Below, piece by piece: positions 53,269 through 64,000 of a DNA stretch of 64,000 bases (positions are counted from its first letter, which is position 1; each line of letters starts with the position of its first letter). The stretch spans positions 416,001 to 480,000 of the forward strand of contig CAVVLJ010000016.1 in assembly GCA_963749075.1 (NCBI GenBank), written 5' to 3'. Made by a program: the position numbers and the translations under genes. This stretch comes from an uncultured Pseudomonadota bacterium. GTDB lineage: Bacteria; Pseudomonadota; Alphaproteobacteria; JACZXZ01. The notes under the pieces were generated by a model, which made no database searches, was not told the DNA's origin, and worked only from the letters and a program-made list of their open reading frames with translations.

Positions 53269-53880
53269 ATGGCCGGACGGCATCCCTTCACGCCGACGGA
53301 GAAAGAGCGCGGCATGGTCGAGGCGCTCGCGGGGCTCGGTCTCGCCCAGGAGGACATCAGCCTCCTCATCATCAACCCCGCGACCGGCAAGCACATCGAC
53401 GCCAAGACCCTGCGCAAGGCCTTCGCCCATGAGCTCAGCGTGGGCGGCGCCAAGGCGAAGGCGGAGATCGCGCGCACCATCTTCAAGATGGCGACCGAGG
53501 ACAAGAGCGTGAGCGCCGCCCTCTTCCTCGCCAAGACCCGCCTCGGTTGGAAAGAGCCACCCGCCAATGAGCAGAAGGACGCGGGCGGCACCGCCCATGA
53601 GGACGCCCTCGAGGACCTTGAGCTAAGCCTGACGATGCAGCAAAAGACTCGAGATGCCCGCCCGGAAGGGTACGTGCAGGTGACCGTGCAGCCATCTGTA
53701 AAAATTCGGAGCAACGCCGGCATTTATATATTGGTCAATGACCATTATCAGGTCGTAAGCCCTGATAAGAGCGTTGGTTGTGATGAAATTCTGACGCTGC
53801 TGGAAGAGCGTTTTGAAGCATCAATTAGGAACTCTGAGGGGATCGTCGACCAAATCATGTCGCTACGGGAGGCTCGGTAA
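53269..53880 (+). CDS. Terminase small subunit-like protein, read-through fused to an inserted foreign C-terminus
   Basis: HTH-like N-terminus, AALFLAKTRLGWKE motif; native end EDLE-stop survives in the second repeat copy. Confidence 0.75.
   Translation: MAGRHPFTPTEKERGMVEALAGLGLAQEDISLLIINPATGKHIDAKTLRKAFAHELSVGGAKAKAEIARTIFKMATEDKSVSAALFLAKTRLGWKEPPANEQKDAGGTAHEDALEDLELSLTMQQKTRDARPEGYVQVTVQPSVKIRSNAGIYILVNDHYQVVSPDKSVGCDEILTLLEERFEASIRNSEGIVDQIMSLREAR
53513..53622 (+). repeat. 110-bp direct repeat, copy 1
   Basis: Identical to 55663-55772. Confidence 0.92.
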
Positions 53881-53881
53881 T

Positions 53882-54592
53882 ATGGTTGCGCCAGCCACCG
53901 CTAAGGTGCATGAGGAAACTGATCGGGCTGACGAGGCTTCGAGTAGCACGTTGGGTATGCCCCGCCACTTAAGAGACTTCCTCGCGGACCTTTCTGCATT
54001 TCGTACGCGCCGGGTGCCCAATACGACAGCGCAAGAGAACAGATCGGAGGACGCCGAACCCACTCTAATTATCTCTCCCAATTTGAAAAATGATATGGCG
54101 CCATCGGATGCTGATGCGTTTACGCCATCGGATGCCGACGCGTTTGCGCAGGCGGCCGCGTTGTCATTAGAGCCACGTTCGGAATTGTCGTCACCCGAGA
54201 GGCCGTTGCAAAGCTTTGTCTCGAAGGCCCAGTACGGCGTTGCCGCAACAGGCGCAGAGCAAAGTTCATACGCTCTCCAAGAATGGGAAGGGTACGTCGT
54301 CGAGGTGGGGGGAGAGACCTTTACAGCCCGTTTGTTGGATATCACGGCGGGATCAAAGGTCGAGGGTGAGATAGCGGAGTTTGCTCTCTCCGAGGTTCCC
54401 GGGCACGACGAAGATCTGTTGCGCGTCGGTGCAGTGTTCCGCTGGATCATTGGACATCTTCGCACGAAGGGAGGCACGAGATGGAACGTCAGCCAAATTG
54501 TGTTCCGGCGTCTGCCTCAATGGAAGAGTCGCGATATTGAAGATGCCAATCGTCGCGCTGAGGCGCTGTCGGCGGCTCTCAAATGGGAATAG
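53882..54592 (+). CDS. Hypothetical protein in the insert (LQEWEGYV family)
   Basis: C-terminal LQEWEGYVVEV..FTARL.D...GAVFRW.IG..IVFRRLP.W; lower GC. Confidence 0.65.
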   Translation: MVAPATAKVHEETDRADEASSSTLGMPRHLRDFLADLSAFRTRRVPNTTAQENRSEDAEPTLIISPNLKNDMAPSDADAFTPSDADAFAQAAALSLEPRSELSSPERPLQSFVSKAQYGVAATGAEQSSYALQEWEGYVVEVGGETFTARLLDITAGSKVEGEIAEFALSEVPGHDEDLLRVGAVFRWIIGHLRTKGGTRWNVSQIVFRRLPQWKSRDIEDANRRAEALSAALKWE

Positions 54593-55182
54593 CCGCAGAC
54601 AGTCCTGCGTCCGACCAGCTTGAGGTTGTGCTTCTCGGACCGGGATATGGTGAGTGCTGCGTCGTTCACATCGGCGATCACCTCGCCGTGGTCGTGCTGA
54701 TCCAAGTTGGCGACACCGCTATGCTATTTGGTTCCGATCTCGAAGAAACTGCCGATCAAAATACCGGCTGGTCGGTCATCGTCAATTCGGTCCTTCGGCC
54801 GCAGATACGTGCGACCATTTTTAAGGTTCCTCATCATGGTTCCGAAAACGCCGACAATGGGGACGTGTGGGCGAGCATGCTCGTCGATCGTCCTATCGCC
54901 ATTCTCACGCCTCACCACCGTGGGAGAACGCGGCTCCCCACGCAAACTGACGTTGTCCGGATTACCAGCCGCACCGAATCAGCCTGGTCAAGCTCACGCG
55001 GAATCCCGCAGGTGCAGCGGCGTAGGCCGGAAGTAGCGAAAGAAATCAATATCCGAACTAAAAGGTTTGTGCGCACGGACGCGGCTACAGGCGCAATTCG
55101 CTTGCGCAATGGTGGAGCACGCACACCAGCCACGTGGTGCGTAGAACTATCGAATGGCGCGTGCCATCTCACCGAGATGTAG
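54583..55182 (+). pseudogene. ComEC/MBL-fold metallo-hydrolase, internally deleted
   Basis: GPGYGEC.VVH, LFGSDLE and KVPHHGS are present but the HxHxDH region is missing. Confidence 0.6.
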
Positions 55183-55662
55183 GTGGACCGTGCACGGCGT
55201 AGAGCCGTCGATTGCTTGACCCTGAGCGGCTGAGGCCGCCGTGCGCCAATATGCGTGGCCACTCGCCAGAAGGGGCCGGCCTCGTCATTGCCCCTTTCGG
55301 GCAGAAGGCTATCGTAGGTCAGCGTGAATTCCAAGAGCTTGCTCGCTGCATTGATGGAACGCTCAAATATGCCGGCCCCCGTTCAGCCTCAGTATCGATC
55401 TGCGAAAAATCATCGGACTGGCGAGGTTGCGCGATGGACTCTTCCACTATTGGTTGGGCACTTTGCAAAAGCGACAATTGGCCGAGTTTTTAAATTTCAA
55501 TGATTTGCTCGTGTACGCTCGCATTGCCTCGTAATTAACCTTTCCCTCTCCATCGAGAGGACTGGGAGTTATAACTTAGCTCCACGCGGGCCGTTCGGTT
55601 TTTGGAAGCGAACAAAAACGGATCGATCGAGAGGTGCGACCGCAAGTGAGTGCCTGGACTAG

Positions 55663-55772
55663 GCGCCGCCCTCTTCCTCGCCAAGACCCGCCTCGGTTGG
55701 AAAGAGCCACCCGCCAATGAGCAGAAGGACGCGGGCGGCACCGCCCATGAGGACGCCCTCGAGGACCTTGAG
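55663..55772 (+). repeat. 110-bp direct repeat, copy 2 (contains the terL start)
   Basis: Identical to 53513-53622, followed by the native terS TAA. Confidence 0.92.
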
Positions 55773-57189
55773 TAAGCGCGAGCGCGCCATCCGCCAGCGC
55801 CTCAAAAGCGACTTCGCGCACTACGCCGCCCACTGCCTCAAGATCCGCACCAAGGAGGGTGCCGTCGAGCCCTTCCGCCTGAATGCGGCGCAGCGCCACA
55901 TCCAGGCCGAGCTCGACCGCCAGCTCGCCGAGACCGGCCGCGTGCGCGCCCTCATCTTGAAGGGCCGCCAGCAGGGCTGCAGCACATATGTAGAAGGGCG
56001 GTTTTTCTGGCGCGTGACGCATCGGCGCGGCACCCGCGCCTTCATCTTGACCCACCTCGACGAGGCGACCATGACGCTCTTCGAGATGGCGAAGCGCTTC
56101 TACGAGCATTGCCCGCCGCCCGTGCGCCCGCGGCTCAAGGCCTCGAACGCGCGCGAGCTCGTCTTCGACCGCCTCGACAGCGGCTACCGCATCGGCACCG
56201 CGGGAAGCCGCGGCGCCGGCCGCTCCCAGACCATCCAATATTTCCACGGCTCGGAGGTCGCCTATTGGCCGAACGCCGAGGAGCATGTGGCGGGAGCGCT
56301 CCAGGCTGTGCCGAATGCGGCCGGGACGGAGGTCATCCTTGAATCCACCTCGGCCGGCCGGCGCGGCCTCTTCTACGAGCTCTGCGAGCGGGCGCGGCAA
56401 GGGGAAGGCGAGCACCGCCTCATCTTCGTGCCCTGGTTCTGGCAGGGGGAGTACCGCGAGGCGGCGGGGGAGGAGTTCGCGGCGAGTTCGGAAGAGGAGG
56501 AGTACGCGCGGCAGCACGGCACAGACGCAAACCAGCTCGCTTGGCGCCGCGCCAAGATCCGCGAGCTCGGCGGCCTCCACCATTTCCGCCGCGAATATCC
56601 GGCAACGCCCGAGGAGGCCTTCGCCGCCGAGCGGCCCGGCAGCCTGTGGCGCCGCGAGATCATCGACGGCACGCGCGTGGCGGCGGCGCCCGAGTTGAAG
56701 CGCATCGTCGTCGCGGTCGATCCCTCGGGCGGCGAGACGCAGGCGAGCGACGAGGCCGGCATCGTTGCGGCCGGGCTCGGGCACGACGGCCACGGCTATG
56801 TGCTCGAGGACCTCTCCGGCCGCATGGGGCCGGCGGCCTGGGGCGGGCGCGCGGTCGCCGCCTATCACCGCCTCGAGGCCGACCGCATCGTGGCCGAGAA
56901 GAACTTCGGCGGCGAGATGGTGGCGCACGTCATCCGCACCGTCGACGCCTCGGCGCCGCTCAAGCTCGTCACCGCGAGCCGCGGCAAGGAGCTGCGCGCC
57001 GAGCCGGTCGCCGCCCTCTACGAGCAGGGCAGGGTGCATCACGTCGGCACGCATCTGGCGCTCGAGGACGAGATGACGAGCTGGGAGCCCGGTCCCGCGA
57101 GCCGCTCGCCCAACCGGCTCGACGCGCTCGTCTGGGCCTTGAGCGAGCTCATGATCGAGCCCAAGGCGAAGAAGCTCGTATTCGGTTGA
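55717..57189 (+). CDS. terL: Terminase large subunit
   Basis: Walker A LKGRQQGCST, Walker B FHGSEVAYW, coupling motif ILESTS, nuclease VVAVDP..AEKNFGG..SPNRLDALVWA. Confidence 0.9.
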   Translation: MSRRTRAAPPMRTPSRTLSKRERAIRQRLKSDFAHYAAHCLKIRTKEGAVEPFRLNAAQRHIQAELDRQLAETGRVRALILKGRQQGCSTYVEGRFFWRVTHRRGTRAFILTHLDEATMTLFEMAKRFYEHCPPPVRPRLKASNARELVFDRLDSGYRIGTAGSRGAGRSQTIQYFHGSEVAYWPNAEEHVAGALQAVPNAAGTEVILESTSAGRRGLFYELCERARQGEGEHRLIFVPWFWQGEYREAAGEEFAASSEEEEYARQHGTDANQLAWRRAKIRELGGLHHFRREYPATPEEAFAAERPGSLWRREIIDGTRVAAAPELKRIVVAVDPSGGETQASDEAGIVAAGLGHDGHGYVLEDLSGRMGPAAWGGRAVAAYHRLEADRIVAEKNFGGEMVAHVIRTVDASAPLKLVTASRGKELRAEPVAALYEQGRVHHVGTHLALEDEMTSWEPGPASRSPNRLDALVWALSELMIEPKAKKLVFG

Positions 57190-57201: not shown

Positions 57202-58545
57202 ATGGCTCTTCTCCGGCACCTCGGGCGGCTCGCGCGCGCCTTCCGCCGCGGCGGCGCGCCCGATGGTGCCGTGCCGGAGCGCGCGACGGCCGCCTATCCG
57301 CGTTTCGTGCAGCTCGGCGAGACGCGCTCGCGGCTGCTGCCGGCCTTGAAGCCGACGCCGCTCTCCCTGCGCTACTTCAGCCGCACGCCCTATGCGCGCC
57401 GCGCCATCAACGCCATCAAGAACCCGGTGGCTCAGCTTGCTTGGGAAGTGGCGCCGCGGCGCGGTGCGGAGGCGAGCCCCGAGCTCCAGCACCAGATCGC
57501 TGTCGCGACGCGCTGCCTGGGCGAGCCCAATGCCGAGGACAGCTTCCGCTCGCTCATCGAGCAGGTGCTCGAGGACGCGCTCTGCGGCGGCGGCGCCATC
57601 GAGGTCGAGCTCGGCCAGGATCCCGAGCGTCCGCTCTGGCTGTGGCCGGTCGACGGGCTCTCGATCCAGATCTATCCCGGCTGGAGCGGCACTCTGGGCG
57701 AGGCGCGCTACCTCCAGACCCTCGGCTACGGCGGCATCGGTGCCACCGACCAGGGGGTAGCACTCCTCGACGAGGAGCTCATCTACATCCGCCCCAATCC
57801 CTCGACCGCGACGCCCTTCGGCGTGGGCCCGCTCGAGATCGCCTTCACCTCGGTGAGCCGGCTCCTGGGCGTCGCCGAATACGCCGGCAACCTCTCCTCG
57901 AACACGCGGCCTGCCACCATCCTCGACCTCGGCGAGGCGGCCTCGCCCGACGAGCTCGCCGCCTTCCGAGCCTGGTGGAGGAACGACATCGAGGGCCAGG
58001 GCATGATGCCCATTGTGGGCGGCATGCAGAAGCCGCAGGTGCTGCGCCTCGCCCCCGAGGGCGACGAGGCGCTCTACCTCAAGTACCAGGAGTTCCTCAA
58101 GGCGGAGATCGCCGCCGCCTTCGACCTCTCGCCGCAGAACCTCGGCAAGGAGGCCAACGTGAACCGCTCGACCGCCGAGGTCGCCGAGGACCGCGACTGG
58201 GACCAGGCGATAAAGCCGTGGGCCGGCCTCATCGCGGCGCACCTGACGCAGGGTGCCATCGCCAAGCGCCTCGGCTTCTCCCAGCTCGAGTTCCGCTTCA
58301 CCGGCATCGACCGCGAGGACGAGCGCGAGACCGCCGAGATCTTCCAGATCTACTACCGCAACAACGCGCTCACGCCGAACGAGCAGCGCGCGCGCCTGGG
58401 CCTGCCACGGCTCGCCTCGCGGGTGGGCGACATGACCGCGGCCGAGGCCGCACTCATGCTCGCGCGCGCGGGCGTCCGCCTGCCCGCGGCCCGCGCCCAT
58501 CCGGCACAACCCTCAGGAGAGAAGGAGGACGACCATGGCTCGTGA
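57202..58545 (+). CDS. Phage portal protein
   Basis: Follows terL; LWPVDG, IYIRPNP..PFGVGPLE, IAAAFDLSP..LG, NRSTAE, LTPNEQRARLGL. Confidence 0.88.
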   Translation: MALLRHLGRLARAFRRGGAPDGAVPERATAAYPRFVQLGETRSRLLPALKPTPLSLRYFSRTPYARRAINAIKNPVAQLAWEVAPRRGAEASPELQHQIAVATRCLGEPNAEDSFRSLIEQVLEDALCGGGAIEVELGQDPERPLWLWPVDGLSIQIYPGWSGTLGEARYLQTLGYGGIGATDQGVALLDEELIYIRPNPSTATPFGVGPLEIAFTSVSRLLGVAEYAGNLSSNTRPATILDLGEAASPDELAAFRAWWRNDIEGQGMMPIVGGMQKPQVLRLAPEGDEALYLKYQEFLKAEIAAAFDLSPQNLGKEANVNRSTAEVAEDRDWDQAIKPWAGLIAAHLTQGAIAKRLGFSQLEFRFTGIDREDERETAEIFQIYYRNNALTPNEQRARLGLPRLASRVGDMTAAEAALMLARAGVRLPAARAHPAQPSGEKEDDHGS

Positions 58546-58843
58546 CATCCGCACCATCGAGGTGCCCGACGGCGCCACCCCGCAGCAGGAGGACCGCGTC
58601 GTCGTCGGCATGCTCGCGGGCGTCGCCAACGGGGCGGGCTCGGGGGCAGGGGCCGCCGTCGCGGTGGCGCTCGCCGGCTTCGCCAACCTCCCCGCGAGCT
58701 ACTCGGTGCTCGTCAATCCCGGCCAGGACGCCACCTGGTACGTGGGCGGCAAGGGCCCGACCGGCTTCACCGTGACGCTCACTCCGCGCCTCGCCGCCAA
58801 TACGCTCGCCGCCGGCAGCTTCGACGTGGTGATCGTGGCGTGA
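58535..58843 (+). CDS. Small phage structural-like beta protein
   Basis: AGGAGG RBS; LPASYSVLVNPGQ..K.PTGFTVTL..GSFDVVIVA. Confidence 0.65.
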   Translation: MARDIRTIEVPDGATPQQEDRVVVGMLAGVANGAGSGAGAAVAVALAGFANLPASYSVLVNPGQDATWYVGGKGPTGFTVTLTPRLAANTLAAGSFDVVIVA

Positions 58844-59096
58844 GTGGTGAGAGCGACCTGCGATCGACGACGGCCGAGCTATTGAGGTATTAGGACAAGC
58901 ACACCTAGTGCCGCTTCACAAAGGAATCGACTCGATTCAACTCGATACAAATTTGAGCAATAAAATTACAATATTTAGGGCGCGCATGGGCTTCCTTTGC
59001 CTGTCGCGACTAAGCTGGCCCGATGGTTCAAGAAGGACGCGTGAACAACTCCGACCACGTGACTGACGGCCAGCCGGTTTGACGGGAGCGGGAGCC

Positions 59097-59462
59097 ATGG
59101 CTACACGCGAAAACCCGCAACCGGGCGTCGGCATCGTGCGCGTCGCCGACGGGCGCGGGCGCAGGCTCGGCTTCAAGCGGCCGACCATTCTCGACCGCCT
59201 GCGGCTCTTCGAGCTCATCGGCGGCGAGAGCGCGGAGAATCCCGCCTACCTCGGCGTCGCGGGCACGGCTTTCTGCCTCGTGGAGATCGACGGCGAGCCG
59301 CTGGCGCCGGCCAACAGCCGGCGCGAGCTCGAGACGCGCGCGATCATGATCGGCGACGAGGGATTCCTCGCGGCGGGCCGCGTGGTCGCGGAGCAGTTCA
59401 CCGCACCGGGCCCGGACGAGCGCCAGGAGGCGCAAGCGGAAGTCCTACGCTCGCCGCCGTAA
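59097..59462 (+). CDS. Phage tail assembly chaperone-like protein
   Basis: GGAG RBS; V.DGRGR.L...LDRLRL..G...EN..Y...V.IDGEP...IGDEG pattern recalled from myophage tail chaperones. Confidence 0.55.
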   Translation: MATRENPQPGVGIVRVADGRGRRLGFKRPTILDRLRLFELIGGESAENPAYLGVAGTAFCLVEIDGEPLAPANSRRELETRAIMIGDEGFLAAGRVVAEQFTAPGPDERQEAQAEVLRSPP

Positions 59463-59545
59463 GCGCGAGCGCATTCGTACTTGATTTGTTCAAACATCCA
59501 CCCTAGGTTGAATGAACGTCGATCCGCGCAGCACCGGAAAGCCGG

Positions 59546-60367
59546 GTGCCGAGGCGGTCGGCGCAAGCCTGGCGGAGTGGTGCCGTGGGTTGGCGGCGAT
59601 TCATCGCGCGCGCAGCGAGGGGGAGGGCGGCGACGGATGGCGCTGACGGCGGCGCGGCGCGGGCGCGACCCCGCCGCCGCCGCTGGGCCGCGGCCGCGCT
59701 CGGTGCGCTGGCGCTCGCCGCGCTGTGGTGGCTCCTCGTGCGCGAGAGCGCGCCCGCGACCCTCGACGTCGATATTACGGACACGCCCACGCCGGGGAGC
59801 CCCGTCACGCATCTCAGGATCCCGAGGCCTTACTTCTTTTGGGCGATGATGCCCGACGCGCGCGAGGAGCCCCTCGTGGAGCTCGTCGCCTATCTGCCCG
59901 GCCTTCTCTCGGAGAAGGATGCGAAGCGCGCCGGCTACCCGACCGTCCGGGAGGTCGTCAACGGCATCAAGCTGCCGTCGGACAACCAAGTGTTCATCAC
60001 CGTCGAACAGTCCGTGCCGGACCTTGTGAATAAATTCTTTCATGTGCTGACCGCGCGGCCAGAGGTCAAGTTCGATGGTGCGCGAGACGGCACGTATCAG
60101 GTCTATACCATCACGAAGAAGAATTTTTCGGGGAATTACTTCTCCGACCCATTGCAGGGCGAATATCTCGGGCCGATCGGCCGCGACAATCTTTTCATTG
60201 AGTGCGGCTCTCTAAATATGTCGCCAGACGATACTGGCTGCGAAGTCTATACCCAATTCAGCGACAAGCTGGAAATGCGCTTCTCCGTCACCCGAAGCCG
60301 TCTTGCCGAATGGCCGAGCGTGGAGGAGAAGGTGAAGAAGCTCGTGGCATCCTTCGTGGTCGAGTGA
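59546..60367 (+). CDS. Membrane-anchored immunity-like protein, paralog 1
   Basis: Basic N-terminus plus one TM helix, C-x10-C near the C-terminus, RLAEWPSVE.KV..LV.SF; start uncertain. Confidence 0.75.
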   Translation: MPRRSAQAWRSGAVGWRRFIARAARGRAATDGADGGAARARPRRRRWAAAALGALALAALWWLLVRESAPATLDVDITDTPTPGSPVTHLRIPRPYFFWAMMPDAREEPLVELVAYLPGLLSEKDAKRAGYPTVREVVNGIKLPSDNQVFITVEQSVPDLVNKFFHVLTARPEVKFDGARDGTYQVYTITKKNFSGNYFSDPLQGEYLGPIGRDNLFIECGSLNMSPDDTGCEVYTQFSDKLEMRFSVTRSRLAEWPSVEEKVKKLVASFVVE

Positions 60368-60417
60368 GTGCTGCAAGGCGGGGAGAGCCGGCGACCGGAA
60401 CACGGTAAGGGTCGGCG

Positions 60418-61152
60418 ATGGGGATATTCGGAGGCACGGGAAAGTTTCCGCAGAAGTCGCGCCGCCGCTGGGCCGCGGCCGTGCTCGGTGCGCTGGCGCT
60501 CGCCGCGCTGTGGTGGCTCTTCGTCTGCGAGAGCGCGCCCGCGATCCTCAACGTCGATATCACGGACACGCGTACGCCGGGGAGTCCCGTCACGCACCAC
60601 AGGATCCCGAAGGCGTATTTGGACCGCTCGATGATTCCCGATGCCCGCGAGCAGCCCCTCGTGGAGCTCGTTGCATATCTCCCTGACCTCCTTTCGGAAG
60701 AGGACGCGAAGCGCGCGGGCTACCCGATCGTTCGCGAAGTCGTCGGCCGCTTCTCGCTGCCGTCGGATAATCGTGTCGATTTGACTGTGCGGCGGTCCGT
60801 GCCGGAAGGCGTCATTAAAGACCTTCACGCGCTGATCAAAGACGATCACGCCAGGTTCGATGGCGTGCGAGGCGGCGCGTACGAGGTCTACACTATCACC
60901 AAGAGGAATTTCTCGGGGAACTACCTCCCGGACCCGAGCCAGGGCGAATATCTGAAGCCGATTGGCCGCGACGATCTATTCATCGCGTGCCGCTCCCTCA
61001 ATATGGCACCCGAAAATGCGAGCTGCGACATTTACACCCAGTTCAGCGGCAAACTGGAAATCCGTTTTCTCGTCACGCGCAGCCGGCTTGCTGAATGGCC
61101 GAGCGTCGAGCGGAAGGTGAGGAGGCTGGTGTCATCCTTCGTGGTGCAGTGA
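60418..61152 (+). CDS. Membrane-anchored immunity-like protein, paralog 2
   Basis: Colinear paralog of the neighbouring ORFs. Confidence 0.8.
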   Translation: MGIFGGTGKFPQKSRRRWAAAVLGALALAALWWLFVCESAPAILNVDITDTRTPGSPVTHHRIPKAYLDRSMIPDAREQPLVELVAYLPDLLSEEDAKRAGYPIVREVVGRFSLPSDNRVDLTVRRSVPEGVIKDLHALIKDDHARFDGVRGGAYEVYTITKRNFSGNYLPDPSQGEYLKPIGRDDLFIACRSLNMAPENASCDIYTQFSGKLEIRFLVTRSRLAEWPSVERKVRRLVSSFVVQ

Positions 61153-61202
61153 GTGCCGCGCGGAGAGTAGGGCTCGCGAGCGGAGCACCGTAGGGATCGG
61201 TG

Positions 61203-61940
61203 ATGGGGATATTTGGGGGCACGGGGAAGGTTCCACGGAGAGCGCGCCATCGCCGCCGGGTTGCGGTCGCGCTCGGCGCGCTGGCGCTTGTCGCGTTGTG
61301 GTGGTTCCTCGTGCGCGAAAGCGCGCCTGCGATCCTCAACGTCGATATCACGGACACGCGCACGCCGGGGAGCCCCCTCACGCATCTCAGGATCCCGAGG
61401 GCGTATTTGGATCGGTCGATGCTTCCCGACGCGCGCGAGCAGCCCCTCGTGGAGCTCATCGCCTACCTGCCCGGCCTCATCACGGAGGAAGAGGCGAAGC
61501 GAGCCGGTTACCCCACCGCGCGAGCGGTCGTCGATGGCATCAAGTTGATGACGGATGACGAGCTCCCGATCACTCTCTACAACTCCGTGCCAGACGGGGT
61601 GAGCAAGTCCTTCCACGGAATGATCGGGGAGCGAGACGTGAGGTTCGACGGCATACGAGACGGCACCTACGAAGTCTATACGATCACGAAGAGGAATTTC
61701 GCCGGGAATTACTTGCCAGATCCGAGTCAGGGCGAATATCTGAAGCCACTGGGCCGCGACGATCTTTTCGTCGAGTGTCCCTCCCTCAATATGCCCCCCG
61801 AATATACACGCTGCAATTTTTATATCCAATTTAGCGATCGTCTGGAAATCCTATTCATACTCGGGCGCAATCGTCTAGCGGAATGGCCGAGCGTCGAGGC
61901 GAAGGTGAAGGAGCTGGTGGCATCCTTTGTGGTCGAGTAA
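61203..61940 (+). CDS. Membrane-anchored immunity-like protein, paralog 3
   Basis: Colinear paralog of the neighbouring ORFs. Confidence 0.8.
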   Translation: MGIFGGTGKVPRRARHRRRVAVALGALALVALWWFLVRESAPAILNVDITDTRTPGSPLTHLRIPRAYLDRSMLPDAREQPLVELIAYLPGLITEEEAKRAGYPTARAVVDGIKLMTDDELPITLYNSVPDGVSKSFHGMIGERDVRFDGIRDGTYEVYTITKRNFAGNYLPDPSQGEYLKPLGRDDLFVECPSLNMPPEYTRCNFYIQFSDRLEILFILGRNRLAEWPSVEAKVKELVASFVVE

Positions 61941-61986
61941 CCGATACCCGTCTTCGCCTTGAACATTATGGAATCTAGAAAAGACC

Positions 61987-63309
61987 ATGCCCGAGCAAAG
62001 CAAACGTCTTACCGAGGCGGATCTGGCGAGACTCAAGGCACTCCTCGACGCCCACGACCGCGGCGGTTTCTACGTCGAATATTGGCGCCTCACCGGCAGC
62101 GAGGAAGGCCTGCTGCAGGCCAACGTCGCCACCTTCAGCGGCTACATTGGCGGCATCGCGCTGAGCGTCAACATCGATCTCCAAAATGACCTGAAGGCGC
62201 GATATAAGGGGTTATTTGAAATATCTCAGGATGTGGCGAAATCCTTCTATGCCGCTGTGGAAACCGACGTCCGTGCCGGCGGGACCGGCCACCTGACGGA
62301 TCTTGCAGCGATAGACAGCGCCAAAAAAGCTTGGGAGGACCTGGTTCTCTCGAGATTCTTTCCCGGCAATCCGATCGACGCTTTTATCCATGCCATTCAC
62401 GGCGACTTCAGCAGGCTTGACGAGATCGTATCCCCGGGATCGGGTTACGCCCTTGCCGGCTATCTCGCGGAGCTCTACGGCTGGCGCTATGGCAAGCGGG
62501 CGTCCGACTTCGAAGGTCTCGCCGGCTATACCACGAAGATGGTGGAAGGCCCCGGCGGCCAGCGGATCAAGACCATCCTCGATCCCTCGGGCAAGACGGT
62601 GTTCGTCGAGAGCCCGCACCAGTATTTTCAAGACGTGCTGCCCGACATCGACCAACCGGACGCACAGCTCCCGTACAGCTTAAGCCGCTTCAAGGAATTT
62701 GACCGGGAATTTCGCGTCGAGGCGGATGAGAGCCATTATCCCTTCGGACCGGAGCACGAGCTCTGGCGGCCGCTGCCGCCCGGCATCGCCGACCGCGACC
62801 GCGCGAGCCAGGCGGCGCCGACCATGCCGGCTCCCGCACCCTTGCCCGAGCCGCCGCCCTTGCCGCCCTGGGGCGAGGACTTCCACGAGCTCATGCAGGA
62901 GCGCGGCCGGCACTTCCTCGGGCTCAGCCCGCGCCAGGCCATGTGGACCGGCGACGGAGACGGCGATGCCGCAGCGCAGTTCGCCTCCTTCGATCCCGAT
63001 GGCGCGAGTCCCGTCGGCGTATCGCTTGCGGAAGCTGACGCCGACGGCGAGGAGCCGGATGACGATGGCGAGCCGGACGGTCAGCCGCTGGCGAAGCTGG
63101 ACCGCTCCCTCGACGGCATCGCCCGGCAGCTCGGGGAGATCATCGCCGGCCTCGACGCCCAGTTGGCGCTGCGCCGGCGGCGCGCGCGCGAGATCGTCCG
63201 TGACGTCGAGGCATGGTTCGAGCGCGAGGCGAACAAGCCGCGGAACTCCTCCTGGCGCTACGACTTCCGGCGCACCTACACCCCGCCGGGTCCGGTGCCG
63301 CCGATGTGA
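61987..63309 (+). CDS. Putative effector/toxin: helical N-domain, Pro/Asp-rich linker, phage-like C-terminus
   Basis: 440 aa; lower-GC N-half LTEADLARL..DRGGFY..Y..TGS..LLQA..FSG..GG.A..N; high-GC C-half ending WFEREANKP..YDFRR..PPG. Confidence 0.7.
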   Translation: MPEQSKRLTEADLARLKALLDAHDRGGFYVEYWRLTGSEEGLLQANVATFSGYIGGIALSVNIDLQNDLKARYKGLFEISQDVAKSFYAAVETDVRAGGTGHLTDLAAIDSAKKAWEDLVLSRFFPGNPIDAFIHAIHGDFSRLDEIVSPGSGYALAGYLAELYGWRYGKRASDFEGLAGYTTKMVEGPGGQRIKTILDPSGKTVFVESPHQYFQDVLPDIDQPDAQLPYSLSRFKEFDREFRVEADESHYPFGPEHELWRPLPPGIADRDRASQAAPTMPAPAPLPEPPPLPPWGEDFHELMQERGRHFLGLSPRQAMWTGDGDGDAAAQFASFDPDGASPVGVSLAEADADGEEPDDDGEPDGQPLAKLDRSLDGIARQLGEIIAGLDAQLALRRRRAREIVRDVEAWFEREANKPRNSSWRYDFRRTYTPPGPVPPM

Positions 63310-63360: not shown

Positions 63361-63441
63361 CGCTTGACCGGTGGCCATCGCTCGGCTAGGATGTTGCCAT
63401 CCTGAGATGCTGCGCCCGCCGCCCGGCGGGCGTTTTCGTTT
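63361..63441 (+). promoter_or_regulatory. Promoter-pause-terminator cassette, copy 2
   Basis: TTGACC-17 bp (GGTGGCCATC)-TAGGAT, CCATCCTGA, hairpin CGCCCGCC/GGCGGGCG plus TTTTCGTTT. Confidence 0.75.
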
Positions 63442-63529
63442 GCGGACACCGCTTCGTTTGCGGACACCGCGCGCCCTCGCGGGCCGGCGCGGTGCGGGCG
63501 CCTTCATCCCGACCAGCACGGAGAGAGAC

Positions 63530-63851: not shown

Positions 63852-64000
63852 ATGACCAAGCTGAGCAAGATCGAGCGCGCGGCCCTTCCCGACAGCGCCT
63901 TCGCCGTGCCGGGGAAGCGCAAGCTCCTCATCGAGGACGCGAGCCACCTGCGCTTCGCCTGGGACGAGCTCGAGCGCACGCAGGACCTCACCGAGGCTGA
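63852..64000 (+). CDS. DUF6582-like phage head-module protein (partial)
   Basis: MTKLSKIERAALPDSAFAVPGKRKLLIEDASHLRFAW; runs off the window. Confidence 0.7.
   Translation, partial: MTKLSKIERAALPDSAFAVPGKRKLLIEDASHLRFAWDELERTQDLTEA

Follow-up and report, generated by a model that had tools for sequence, protein, structure and literature searches.

A putative tail-linked effector-immunity cassette with Smlt3025-like paralogs among the structural genes of an alphaproteobacterial prophage

A gene cassette embedded in a contractile-tailed prophage

The DNA analysed here is a stretch of 64,000 nucleotides (positions 416001-480000 of contig C16, called the window below) from a soil alphaproteobacterial genome that is 96% complete. 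A gene cassette of five intact open reading frames (ORFs), all on the + strand, was found in it at 59079-63309, inside a prophage. The cassette consists of a tail-assembly-chaperone-like gene (w127), three immunity-like paralogs in tandem and an effector-like gene (w440). Its best explanation, to which we gave about an even chance, is that of a tail-linked polymorphic effector-immunity cassette, in which the effector would be loaded into a contractile phage tail by means of its conserved C-terminus and the chaperone-like partner. Such a putative mobile cassette is present in at least two copies among the structural genes of this prophage. The gene order, the homologies, the modularity, the purifying selection and the linkage to tail genes were observed directly and are described first. 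A first-pass annotation of the same DNA, made without database searches, had proposed that a phage-derived element holds an effector together with an array of immunity genes; this picture was largely borne out, and the five ORFs were all present, on the + strand, where it had placed them.

The paralogs as remote homologues of Smlt3025

The three tandem paralogs shared 65-69% protein identity, and their DNA formed a tandem unit of approximately 785-788 nt with 75-84% identity. In each of them, a single hydrophobic segment followed an Arg-rich stretch close to the N-terminus (Kyte-Doolittle), in agreement with the one N-terminal transmembrane (TM) helix that had been assigned to each in the first-pass annotation. 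The variable middle described there was located at alignment columns 136-180, in which 3-6 of every 15 residues were identical in all three proteins, versus 9-13 elsewhere, and in which the non-synonymous divergence (dN) rose to 0.36-0.54, versus 0.07-0.24 elsewhere. The synonymous divergence (dS) was mostly 0.25-1.2, so that the copies are old; one pair had a short N-terminal segment with a dS of 0.04, and outside that segment dN/dS was <1 throughout. A Cys pair, also noticed at first pass, was invariant in the three paralogs and was seen by eye in the Smlt3025 family and in the plasmid relatives as well.

According to the available text of PMC6759196, Smlt3025 binds and neutralises Smlt3024, a periplasm-acting effector of the type IV secretion system (T4SS), and the two constitute an X-Tfe/X-Tfi pair of the bacteria-killing T4SS of Stenotrophomonas maltophilia. 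Its fold resembles that of FrpD according to the same text, and the structure 6PDK covers its residues 86-333. Smlt3025 is a predicted lipoprotein that binds its effector 1:1, and its fold comprises a pair of beta-hairpins, a sheet of eight strands and a helix at the C-terminus. When a profile of five members of the paralog family (A2) was searched against the PDB, 6PDK was matched at E 1.8e-4 in two collinear stretches, corresponding to the N-terminal hairpin region and the C-terminal helix. Furthermore, the NCBIfam model NF050129 led to two genuine Smlt3025-family proteins in two phylum-sample genomes, one of them at 560 bits and above the cut-off, and the hhalign comparison of the paralog family with these two proteins gave a probability of 95.9% and E 5.6e-9 over 175 columns. 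On plasmids of A. vitis and Falsihalocynthiibacter, the paralog profile also matched the small genes that immediately precede RTX genes (E 1.7e-5 and E 2.7e-3, respectively).

In the NCBIfam scan, the only match obtained was that of t259, a protein of the second cassette described below, to NF050129 (17.8 bits, E 0.0015). Since the scores stayed far under the NF050129 cut-off, the paralogs were not considered equivalogs or orthologues of Smlt3025. As judged from these profile comparisons, they are remote homologues of this immunity protein, as the first-pass annotation had suspected. Paralog 3 ends 47 nt before the w440 ORF, and the order of upstream partner and then effector was also found in the two genomes with Smlt3025-family genes (G741 and G539). 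No match was obtained with paralog 2 in 50,697 phage records (tblastn), with the paralog profile in 60 relatives (0/60), or with the paralogs in a related-locus search of genome contigs.

The N-terminal domain of the effector-like protein

The translation of w440 comprises an N-terminal domain, a Pro/Asp-rich linker and a conserved C-terminal domain. The change in composition noted at first pass was measurable, the GC content along the ORF being 0.54-0.59 in the N-half and 0.68-0.71 in the C-half.

A phmmer search with w440 yielded 303 representatives at E<=1e-3. Among the non-self matches listed, 144 of 149 paired w440 residues ~1-250 with the N-terminus of the target, and these N-domain matches lay within the first ~290 residues of proteins ranging from 99 to 6020 aa. 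RTX repeats or HCBP_related (PF00353 or PF06594) were present in 17 of 25 Pfam-scanned N-domain relatives, which had been hand-picked from top matches and long proteins and are not a random sample. According to the available text of PMC6759196, relatives of Smlt3024 occur at the N-termini of RTX proteins, a description with which the w440 relatives agree, and its S4 Fig lists 221 of them. These searches indicate that the w440 N-domain is a domain of the RTX-protein N-terminal type whose opening motif is common to Smlt3024.

The hhalign comparison of the N-domain family with two Smlt3024-type sequences gave E 0.067 over 35 columns, and with six such sequences E 5.5e-4 and a probability of 30% over 29 N-terminal columns; when a hidden Markov model (HMM) of the w440 family was run on a set of 12, it matched three RTX proteins from plasmids that are Smlt3024-like (E 0.002-0.02). 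As no direct link to Smlt3024 was found beyond the opening motif, the N-domain was not filed as a member of the Smlt3024 family. The resemblance to Smlt3024/FrpC N-domains claimed at first pass stood as regards the RTX N-terminal type and was weak as regards Smlt3024 itself.

Other searches with this protein were negative. w440 had no Pfam match at E<=0.1, no PHROG match and no RTX repeats. Neither w440 in 50,697 phage records nor the N-domain in plasmids was matched by tblastn, and w440 was found in 0/60 relatives. The word-index protein searches returned this genome's own proteins only, the cassette families being nearly orphan in them; one such search, limited to the best 8000 candidates, missed t529 and is a weak negative. 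The N-domain alignment run against 400 phylum-sample genomes, with five candidates scored per genome, gave two weak matches at profile positions 193-335, mostly past the N-domain, and two Stenotrophomonas-type genomes, apparently in that sample, were unmatched. Nothing useful was obtained from PDB sequence searches with w440, t544 and the profiles A10, A11 and A7. A PDB match of A7 to the RTX repeats of CyaA was rejected, since it arose via aligned repeat columns only.

The C-terminal domain and its metagenome loci

The last 94 residues of t529, the effector-like protein of the second cassette, were 50% identical to the end of w440. In the last 26 codons, a manual count gave 8 synonymous and 2 non-synonymous differences between both genes, which indicated purifying selection and not recent gene conversion. 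Five of the phmmer matches listed covered w440 residues ~347-440 and not the N-domain: t529 itself, two fragments, and two further proteins, one of 593 aa whose N-domain is of the w440 type and one of 444 aa whose N-domain is a class-3 lipase.

Pattern scans detected the C-domain family (A6) in six soil metagenome contigs and in none of the genome contigs and viral contigs scanned. A C-domain profile run against 400 genomes of the class gave three matches, whose E values of 1e-3 to 9e-3 are at chance level for that number of genomes. In four of the six metagenome loci, tube, chaperone-like, t310-like or gpV-like genes adjoined the effector gene. The order in the first locus was effector, tube (77% identical to the tube of this prophage) and chaperone-like gene; in the second, effector, chaperone-like and t310-like genes; in the third, effector and chaperone-like gene; and in the fourth, a gpV-like fragment, a chaperone-like gene, a TM-anchored WD40/PD40 propeller and a lipase effector. 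The fifth and sixth contigs carried the propeller followed by the lipase effector, where both of them ended. Where flanks existed, the C-domain adjoined tail genes only, and always with a chaperone-like gene.

One C-domain was thus found behind three types of N-domain: the RTX-N-type, the unassigned one of t529, and Lipase_3. The upstream partner was Smlt3025-like for the RTX-N-type and for the t529 N-domain, and a WD40 propeller for Lipase_3. Two features, a membrane partner that varies along with the N-domain and a constant combination of C-domain and chaperone-like gene, are the signature of polymorphic effector-immunity systems. A C-terminus recurring behind different N-domains next to tail genes had been envisaged at first pass, and t529 and the metagenome lipase proteins are such cases. 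A structure-atlas search with residues 505-593 of the 593-aa homologue (P0012) gave only scores <0.9, from a poor model (pLDDT 0.37).

A diverged second cassette in the tail module

All-vs-all BLASTP and genome searches revealed a diverged second cassette in the tail module of the same prophage, formed by t152, t287, t259 and t529. The proteins w127 and t152 were 50.5% identical (BLASTP) and both matched phrog_20383, a family without assigned function; each cassette has its own homologue of this family. The proteins t287 and t259 were 46% identical, both with a TM helix, and t259 was 24% identical to paralog 1 across its full length. A likeness between the N-halves of w440 and t529 was considered and rejected (BLASTP E 0.43).

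In the Ralstonia phage Hyacinthe and in the prophages G079 and G345, members of phrog_20383 occupy the place between the tail tube gene, which they immediately follow, and the tape-measure-position gene. The label tail-chaperone-like, which w127 had already received at first pass, was retained as a prediction from this synteny. The tail order in Hyacinthe and two related prophages is sheath, tube, the phrog_20383 homologue, a 350-640-aa protein, and then t310-like, gpD-like, gpV, gpW, gpJ and gpI genes. In the prophage studied here, the tube gene is followed directly by t310, then by t152 with t287, t259 and t529, and then by the gpD-like hub gene.

Three further tandem pairs flank the gpD-like gene (C16:497894-506589; L008:7894-16589). 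They consist of small proteins with a signal or TM helix (t314, t253 and t257, 63-76% identical), each followed by a 413-544-aa protein (64-74% identical), and they had no Pfam, PHROG or PDB match. A visual likeness had suggested that the t544-type proteins share the C-domain of w440, an idea that was rejected after the HMM comparison (E 2.2). Frame changes split two of the three t544-type genes (C16:499789-500530 and C16:506065-506788), and in the t478 copy the C-terminal 222 residues, 97.7% identical to t544, lie in another frame. These split genes could be pseudogenes, errors of the metagenome assembly, or programmed shifts.

Proposed function

According to the favored explanation, the cassette would have three parts: a small protein from the family found, in related phages, at the position of the tail assembly chaperone; one to three Smlt3025 homologues, predicted to be anchored in the inner membrane and to face the periplasm; and a modular effector with a variable N-domain, a long Pro-rich linker and a conserved C-domain of ~80 residues. 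Through the chaperone-like protein and the C-domain, the effector would be placed in the tail, inside the tube lumen or else at the hub or spike of the baseplate, in a way that mimics the tape-measure protein, whose overall layout the effector shares. On contraction, the tail would deliver this effector into the periplasm of the cell that is struck, and the N-domain would act there. In cells carrying the element, the membrane-anchored paralogs would neutralise the incoming effector, and the diversified array would cover variant effectors. Binding, toxicity, loading and delivery are all predicted here from the sequence. A search of the genome, which is 96% complete, did not reveal VirD4 (PF02534) or VirB4 (PF03135), and w440 carries no RTX repeats; therefore, the known delivery routes of its relatives are not obviously applicable here.

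A broader proposal was held more tentatively, with somewhat under an even chance. A contractile-tailed temperate phage lineage, or its tailocin-like derivatives, may have turned the tape-measure/chaperone pair into polymorphic antibacterial toxin cassettes. Swappable N-domains (RTX-N-type, lipase and others) would then sit on a tape-measure-like C-terminus, each effector having its own tail-assembly-chaperone homologue and membrane-anchored immunity, and the tail would serve as an interbacterial toxin injector.

Arguments against this explanation and alternative explanations

Several observations weigh against the favored explanation. The copy of the cassette in the window does not lie in the tail module; it is placed between the portal and the scaffold/capsid genes, and not in the tape-measure slot as the first-pass annotation had it. 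The prophage may be defective, with a low-GC insert in the small-terminase region, a further insert that separates sheath from tube, and frameshifts in two genes that belong to another type of cassette. The C-domain family is very rare, and its six metagenome loci are partly redundant (L017 is part of L021) and come from three samples, so that perhaps two or three independent elements are represented. The NF050129 equivalog cut-off of 500 bits was not reached, the paralogs of the window gave no match to this model at E<=0.1, and the genome-wide search reached only 15 bits (E 0.03). The membrane topology of the paralogs was derived from hydropathy alone, and by eye they had no canonical lipobox. 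As regards the N-domain, the w440-family HMM matched no ORF beside the two Smlt3025 homologues, phmmer searches from the Smlt3024 homologues reached none of the collected proteins, including 150 listed relatives of w440, and the Smlt3024-family HMM scored E 2 on w440.

The link with tape-measure proteins was also weak. The tape-measure-position protein of G079 resembles w440 and t529 in overall layout, its N-domain being followed by a long stretch of low complexity and then by a C-terminal helix and tail. w440 follows its chaperone-like gene but between portal and scaffold, and its twin t529 lies between t310 and the gpD-like gene. The hhalign comparison of the C-ends with the tape-measure-position proteins gave 39 gap-free columns at E 0.012 with a probability of 3.6%, and the C-domain HMM scored E 3 on the protein of Hyacinthe; the likeness to tape-measure ends proposed at first pass was thus weak. 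Moreover, the tape-measure-position proteins of the three relatives did not match each other (BLASTP), so that the absence of a canonical one here is not provable by sequence. Given the weak alignment, the lack of an HMM signal and the mutually unmatched relatives, the tape-measure analogy was treated as a lead and not as a result.

The main rival, which we regarded as rather unlikely, is that w440 and t529 are the phage's own tape-measure or ejection proteins, with N-domains (RTX-N-type, lipase) that help to breach the envelope during infection, and that the paralogs are superinfection-exclusion proteins binding the protein brought in by related phages, the whole serving competition between phages and not the killing of bacteria. 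HK97 gp15 and TP-J34 Ltp are reportedly membrane or lipoprotein exclusion factors that target tape-measure proteins. The layout just described equals that of the relatives' tape-measure-position proteins and the C-ends align, if weakly; the capsid, terminase and portal genes are present, as in what may be a real virus; and no other tape-measure candidate was seen between the tube and baseplate genes. Nevertheless, the partner family shares homology with a protein whose role in antibacterial immunity is proven, and t310 comes immediately after the tube, the two not being separated by a chaperone/tape-measure pair. The presence of several different effector-like genes in varied positions, including the head module, also fits cargo better than a single essential ruler.

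The cassettes might instead be ordinary moron effector-immunity pairs that ride in the prophage and exit via host secretion or lysis, the C-terminus being a secretion or regulatory signal unrelated to the tail. The codon GC content at third positions, 0.75-0.80 in the cassette versus 0.91-0.96 in the core phage genes, suggests such acquired cargo, a terminator-like hairpin follows the cassette, and RTX relatives of the N-domain are substrates of type I secretion according to the available text of PMC6759196. We considered this improbable, because w440 has no RTX repeats or other Pfam domain, the T4SS coupling protein and VirB4 were not found in the genome, and the C-domain was seen only beside tail genes, with a chaperone-like gene always there where flanks exist, and was at chance level in the 400 class genomes and absent from the genome and viral contigs scanned. 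A decaying duplication in a defective prophage, with no present function, would account for the inserts, for the frameshifts in two of the three genes of another cassette type and for families that are nearly orphan; it is very improbable in view of five ORFs that are all intact, paralogs with dS mostly 0.25-1.2 and dN/dS <1 in all but one short segment, the 8 synonymous versus 2 non-synonymous changes in the C-terminal 26 codons, and intact related cassettes in other soil metagenomes.

The prophage and its other features

The genes of the prophage continue past the window end in the same contig, and the features within the window are given in Table 1. On the head side, a SU10-like major capsid gene comes after the DUF6582 gene, with Rap1a-like genes and a head-tail adaptor; on the tail side there are sheath, tube and baseplate genes (gpD-like, gpV, PAAR, gpW-like, gpJ and gpI-like) and tail fibres. 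A transglycosylase-type endolysin gene also lies in the part beyond the window. The terminase, portal, SU10-like capsid, sheath, tube and baseplate genes identified the element as a contractile-tailed prophage, which bore out the phage origin proposed at first pass. Its tail is Rahariannevirus-like. The read collections containing this stretch were soil metagenome DNA runs, one of which is probably the source sample, with no RNA run listed.

Table 1. Features of the cassette and of the neighboring prophage genes (window coordinates).
Feature	Position	Strand	Evidence
Small-terminase-like gene	53269-53880	+	Library matches
Large terminase	55717-57189	+	Library matches
Portal, upstream boundary of the head module	57202..58545	+	PF04860 Phage_portal E 8.6e-44; phrog_2662
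102-aa ORF overlapping the portal stop, weakly decoration/cement-like	58535..58843	+	PF09956 E 0.0084, phrog_122 E 0.0047, neither firm
Tail-assembly-chaperone-like gene w127, 127 aa (predicted)	59079..59462, ATG at 59097	+	phrog_20383 E 8e-15
Immunity-like paralog 1, 273 aa as called, start uncertain	59546..60367	+	Member of the paralog family profile A2
Immunity-like paralog 2, 244 aa	60418..61152	+	Paralog family profile
Immunity-like paralog 3, 246 aa, adjoining the effector-like gene	61200..61940	+	Paralog family profile
Effector-like gene w440, 440 aa, entire	61987-63309	+	ORF translation
w440 N-terminal domain, residues ~1-230, RTX-protein N-terminal type	61987..62680	+	phmmer relatives
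w440 Pro/Asp/Ala-rich low-complexity linker	62681..63066	+	Translation; GC rise
w440 conserved C-terminal domain, ~80 residues, and stop codon; proposed tail-loading module	63067..63309	+	Likeness to the t529 end
Terminator-like GC hairpin and T-run just 3' of the cassette	63412..63433	+	Consensus match
453-aa DUF6582 protein, scaffold/protease position, start only in window; SU10-like major capsid gene next	63852..64000	+	PF20223 E 4.6e-7, PF17236 E 4e-6

The 102-aa ORF and the 127-aa ORF are separated by a gap of 236 nt. The hairpin after the cassette was called from a consensus match only, and the count of terminator-like sites in the region was not above that of shuffled sequences. An exact 18-nt tandem duplication stands directly after this hairpin (63435-63470).

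A low-GC stretch (0.56-0.58 versus ~0.70) was located at 53500-55500 of the window, starting inside the small-terminase-like ORF and ending shortly before the large terminase; it holds the ORFs 53813-54592 and 54583-55182, with one match to phrog_28593. The insert between sheath and tube (C16:489618-492493; L001:15618-18493) carries a minus-strand HicB-like antitoxin gene and the genes of a helix-turn-helix protein and a member of phrog_34320. An array of Rap1a-type genes (PF18602, an immunity family of type VI secretion systems, T6SS) is situated directly after the major capsid gene (C16:482392-484506; L001:8392-10506), and one of these genes is fused to the end of a 402-aa ORF. Additionally, a stand-alone PAAR gene (PF05488, E 1.6e-22) comes after the gpV spike gene (C16:507400-507657; L008:17400-17657).

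A second low-GC island was found at 43500-46830 of the window, with a minus-strand integrase fragment at 43665-44378 (phrog_1 E 8e-28) and a purM-like gene at 45317-46438 (phrog_1207). The genes of tRNA-Ala(TGC) and tRNA-Met(CAT) lie 3.6 kb apart at 32990-36739, a spacing that suggests an rRNA operon.

Implications and comparison with known systems

If the broader proposal is true, the cassette would represent a delivery route of polymorphic toxins beyond the type I, IV, V, VI and VII secretion systems (T1SS, T4SS, T5SS, T6SS and T7SS), the extracellular contractile injection systems (eCIS) and the MuF toxins. Loading of the tail by the C-terminus and its chaperone-like partner would be a new mode of trafficking and would make this a natural phage tail with swappable payloads. 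The Smlt3025/FrpD-type immunity family and its partner domains would have moved among type I, type IV and phage-tail delivery. A tag of 80 residues with a chaperone of 130 residues would also provide a compact handle for studying how proteins are placed in contractile tails, and the finding bears on why some prophages hold immunity-like gene arrays within structural operons. A literature search, in which subscription journals were thinly covered, yielded no description of effector-immunity cassettes tied to tape-measure or chaperone genes.

The closest known system is the Smlt3024-Smlt3025 pair. As in that pair, the immunity gene is directly upstream of the effector gene and the immunity proteins are homologous. 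The effector, as predicted from its sequence, likewise combines a toxic N-terminal domain that varies, a linker and a C-terminal domain that is conserved and specifies delivery, its N-domain being related to RTX-protein N-termini. Unlike the X-Tfe effectors, w440 has no XVIPCD-type C-terminus (no match at E<=0.1 in Pfam, which presumably contains an XVIPCD model), and a T4SS was not found. Its C-domain belongs to a different, rare family linked to phage tail genes, and the homology of its N-domain to Smlt3024 was undetectable beyond 29 columns. The paralogs also differ from Smlt3025 in having a signal-anchor helix and not a lipobox (read by eye), and in being three tandem copies.

In FrpC-FrpD of Neisseria meningitidis and in the alphaproteobacterial plasmid RTX pairs, a small Smlt3025/FrpD-type partner is likewise encoded upstream and presumably binds the effector N-domain; unlike w440, their effectors carry RTX repeats for type I secretion. 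MuF toxin genes adjoin the portal gene, as the cassette does. The MuF polymorphic toxins of temperate phages also resemble the cassette in being prophage-encoded modular toxins with immunity genes, according to the available text of PMC5576092. Nevertheless, w440 has no MuF (Phage_Mu_F) domain (no Pfam or PHROG match), and its polarity is reversed, the toxin part being N-terminal and the conserved module C-terminal and tied to tail and not head genes.

T6SS effectors ride on VgrG/PAAR with adaptor chaperones, and the payloads of eCIS, such as those termed PVC, are carried in the tube lumen. As with the cargo of such contractile injection systems (PMC3482391), the toxic protein would be a separate one delivered by a contractile tail of the phage type. 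Features in common with T6SS cargo are the small chaperone-like gene that each effector has beside it, cognate immunity genes and a PAAR gene after the spike gene. Unlike eCIS/PVC, this prophage keeps its terminase, portal and capsid genes, and no PVC-metallopeptidase or AAA+ ATPase was present among the scanned ORFs; unlike the T6SS adaptors, the chaperone-like protein comes from a family of the phage tail-assembly-chaperone position. Finally, the twin effector gene resembles those of tape-measure proteins with enzymatic domains in following a chaperone-position gene and in encoding a globular domain that is followed by a long extended region and by an end that is conserved. It probably differs from them in not encoding a coiled-coil ruler; it also differs in that there are several copies with unrelated N-domains, one of them in the head module, and in being paired with immunity-type genes.

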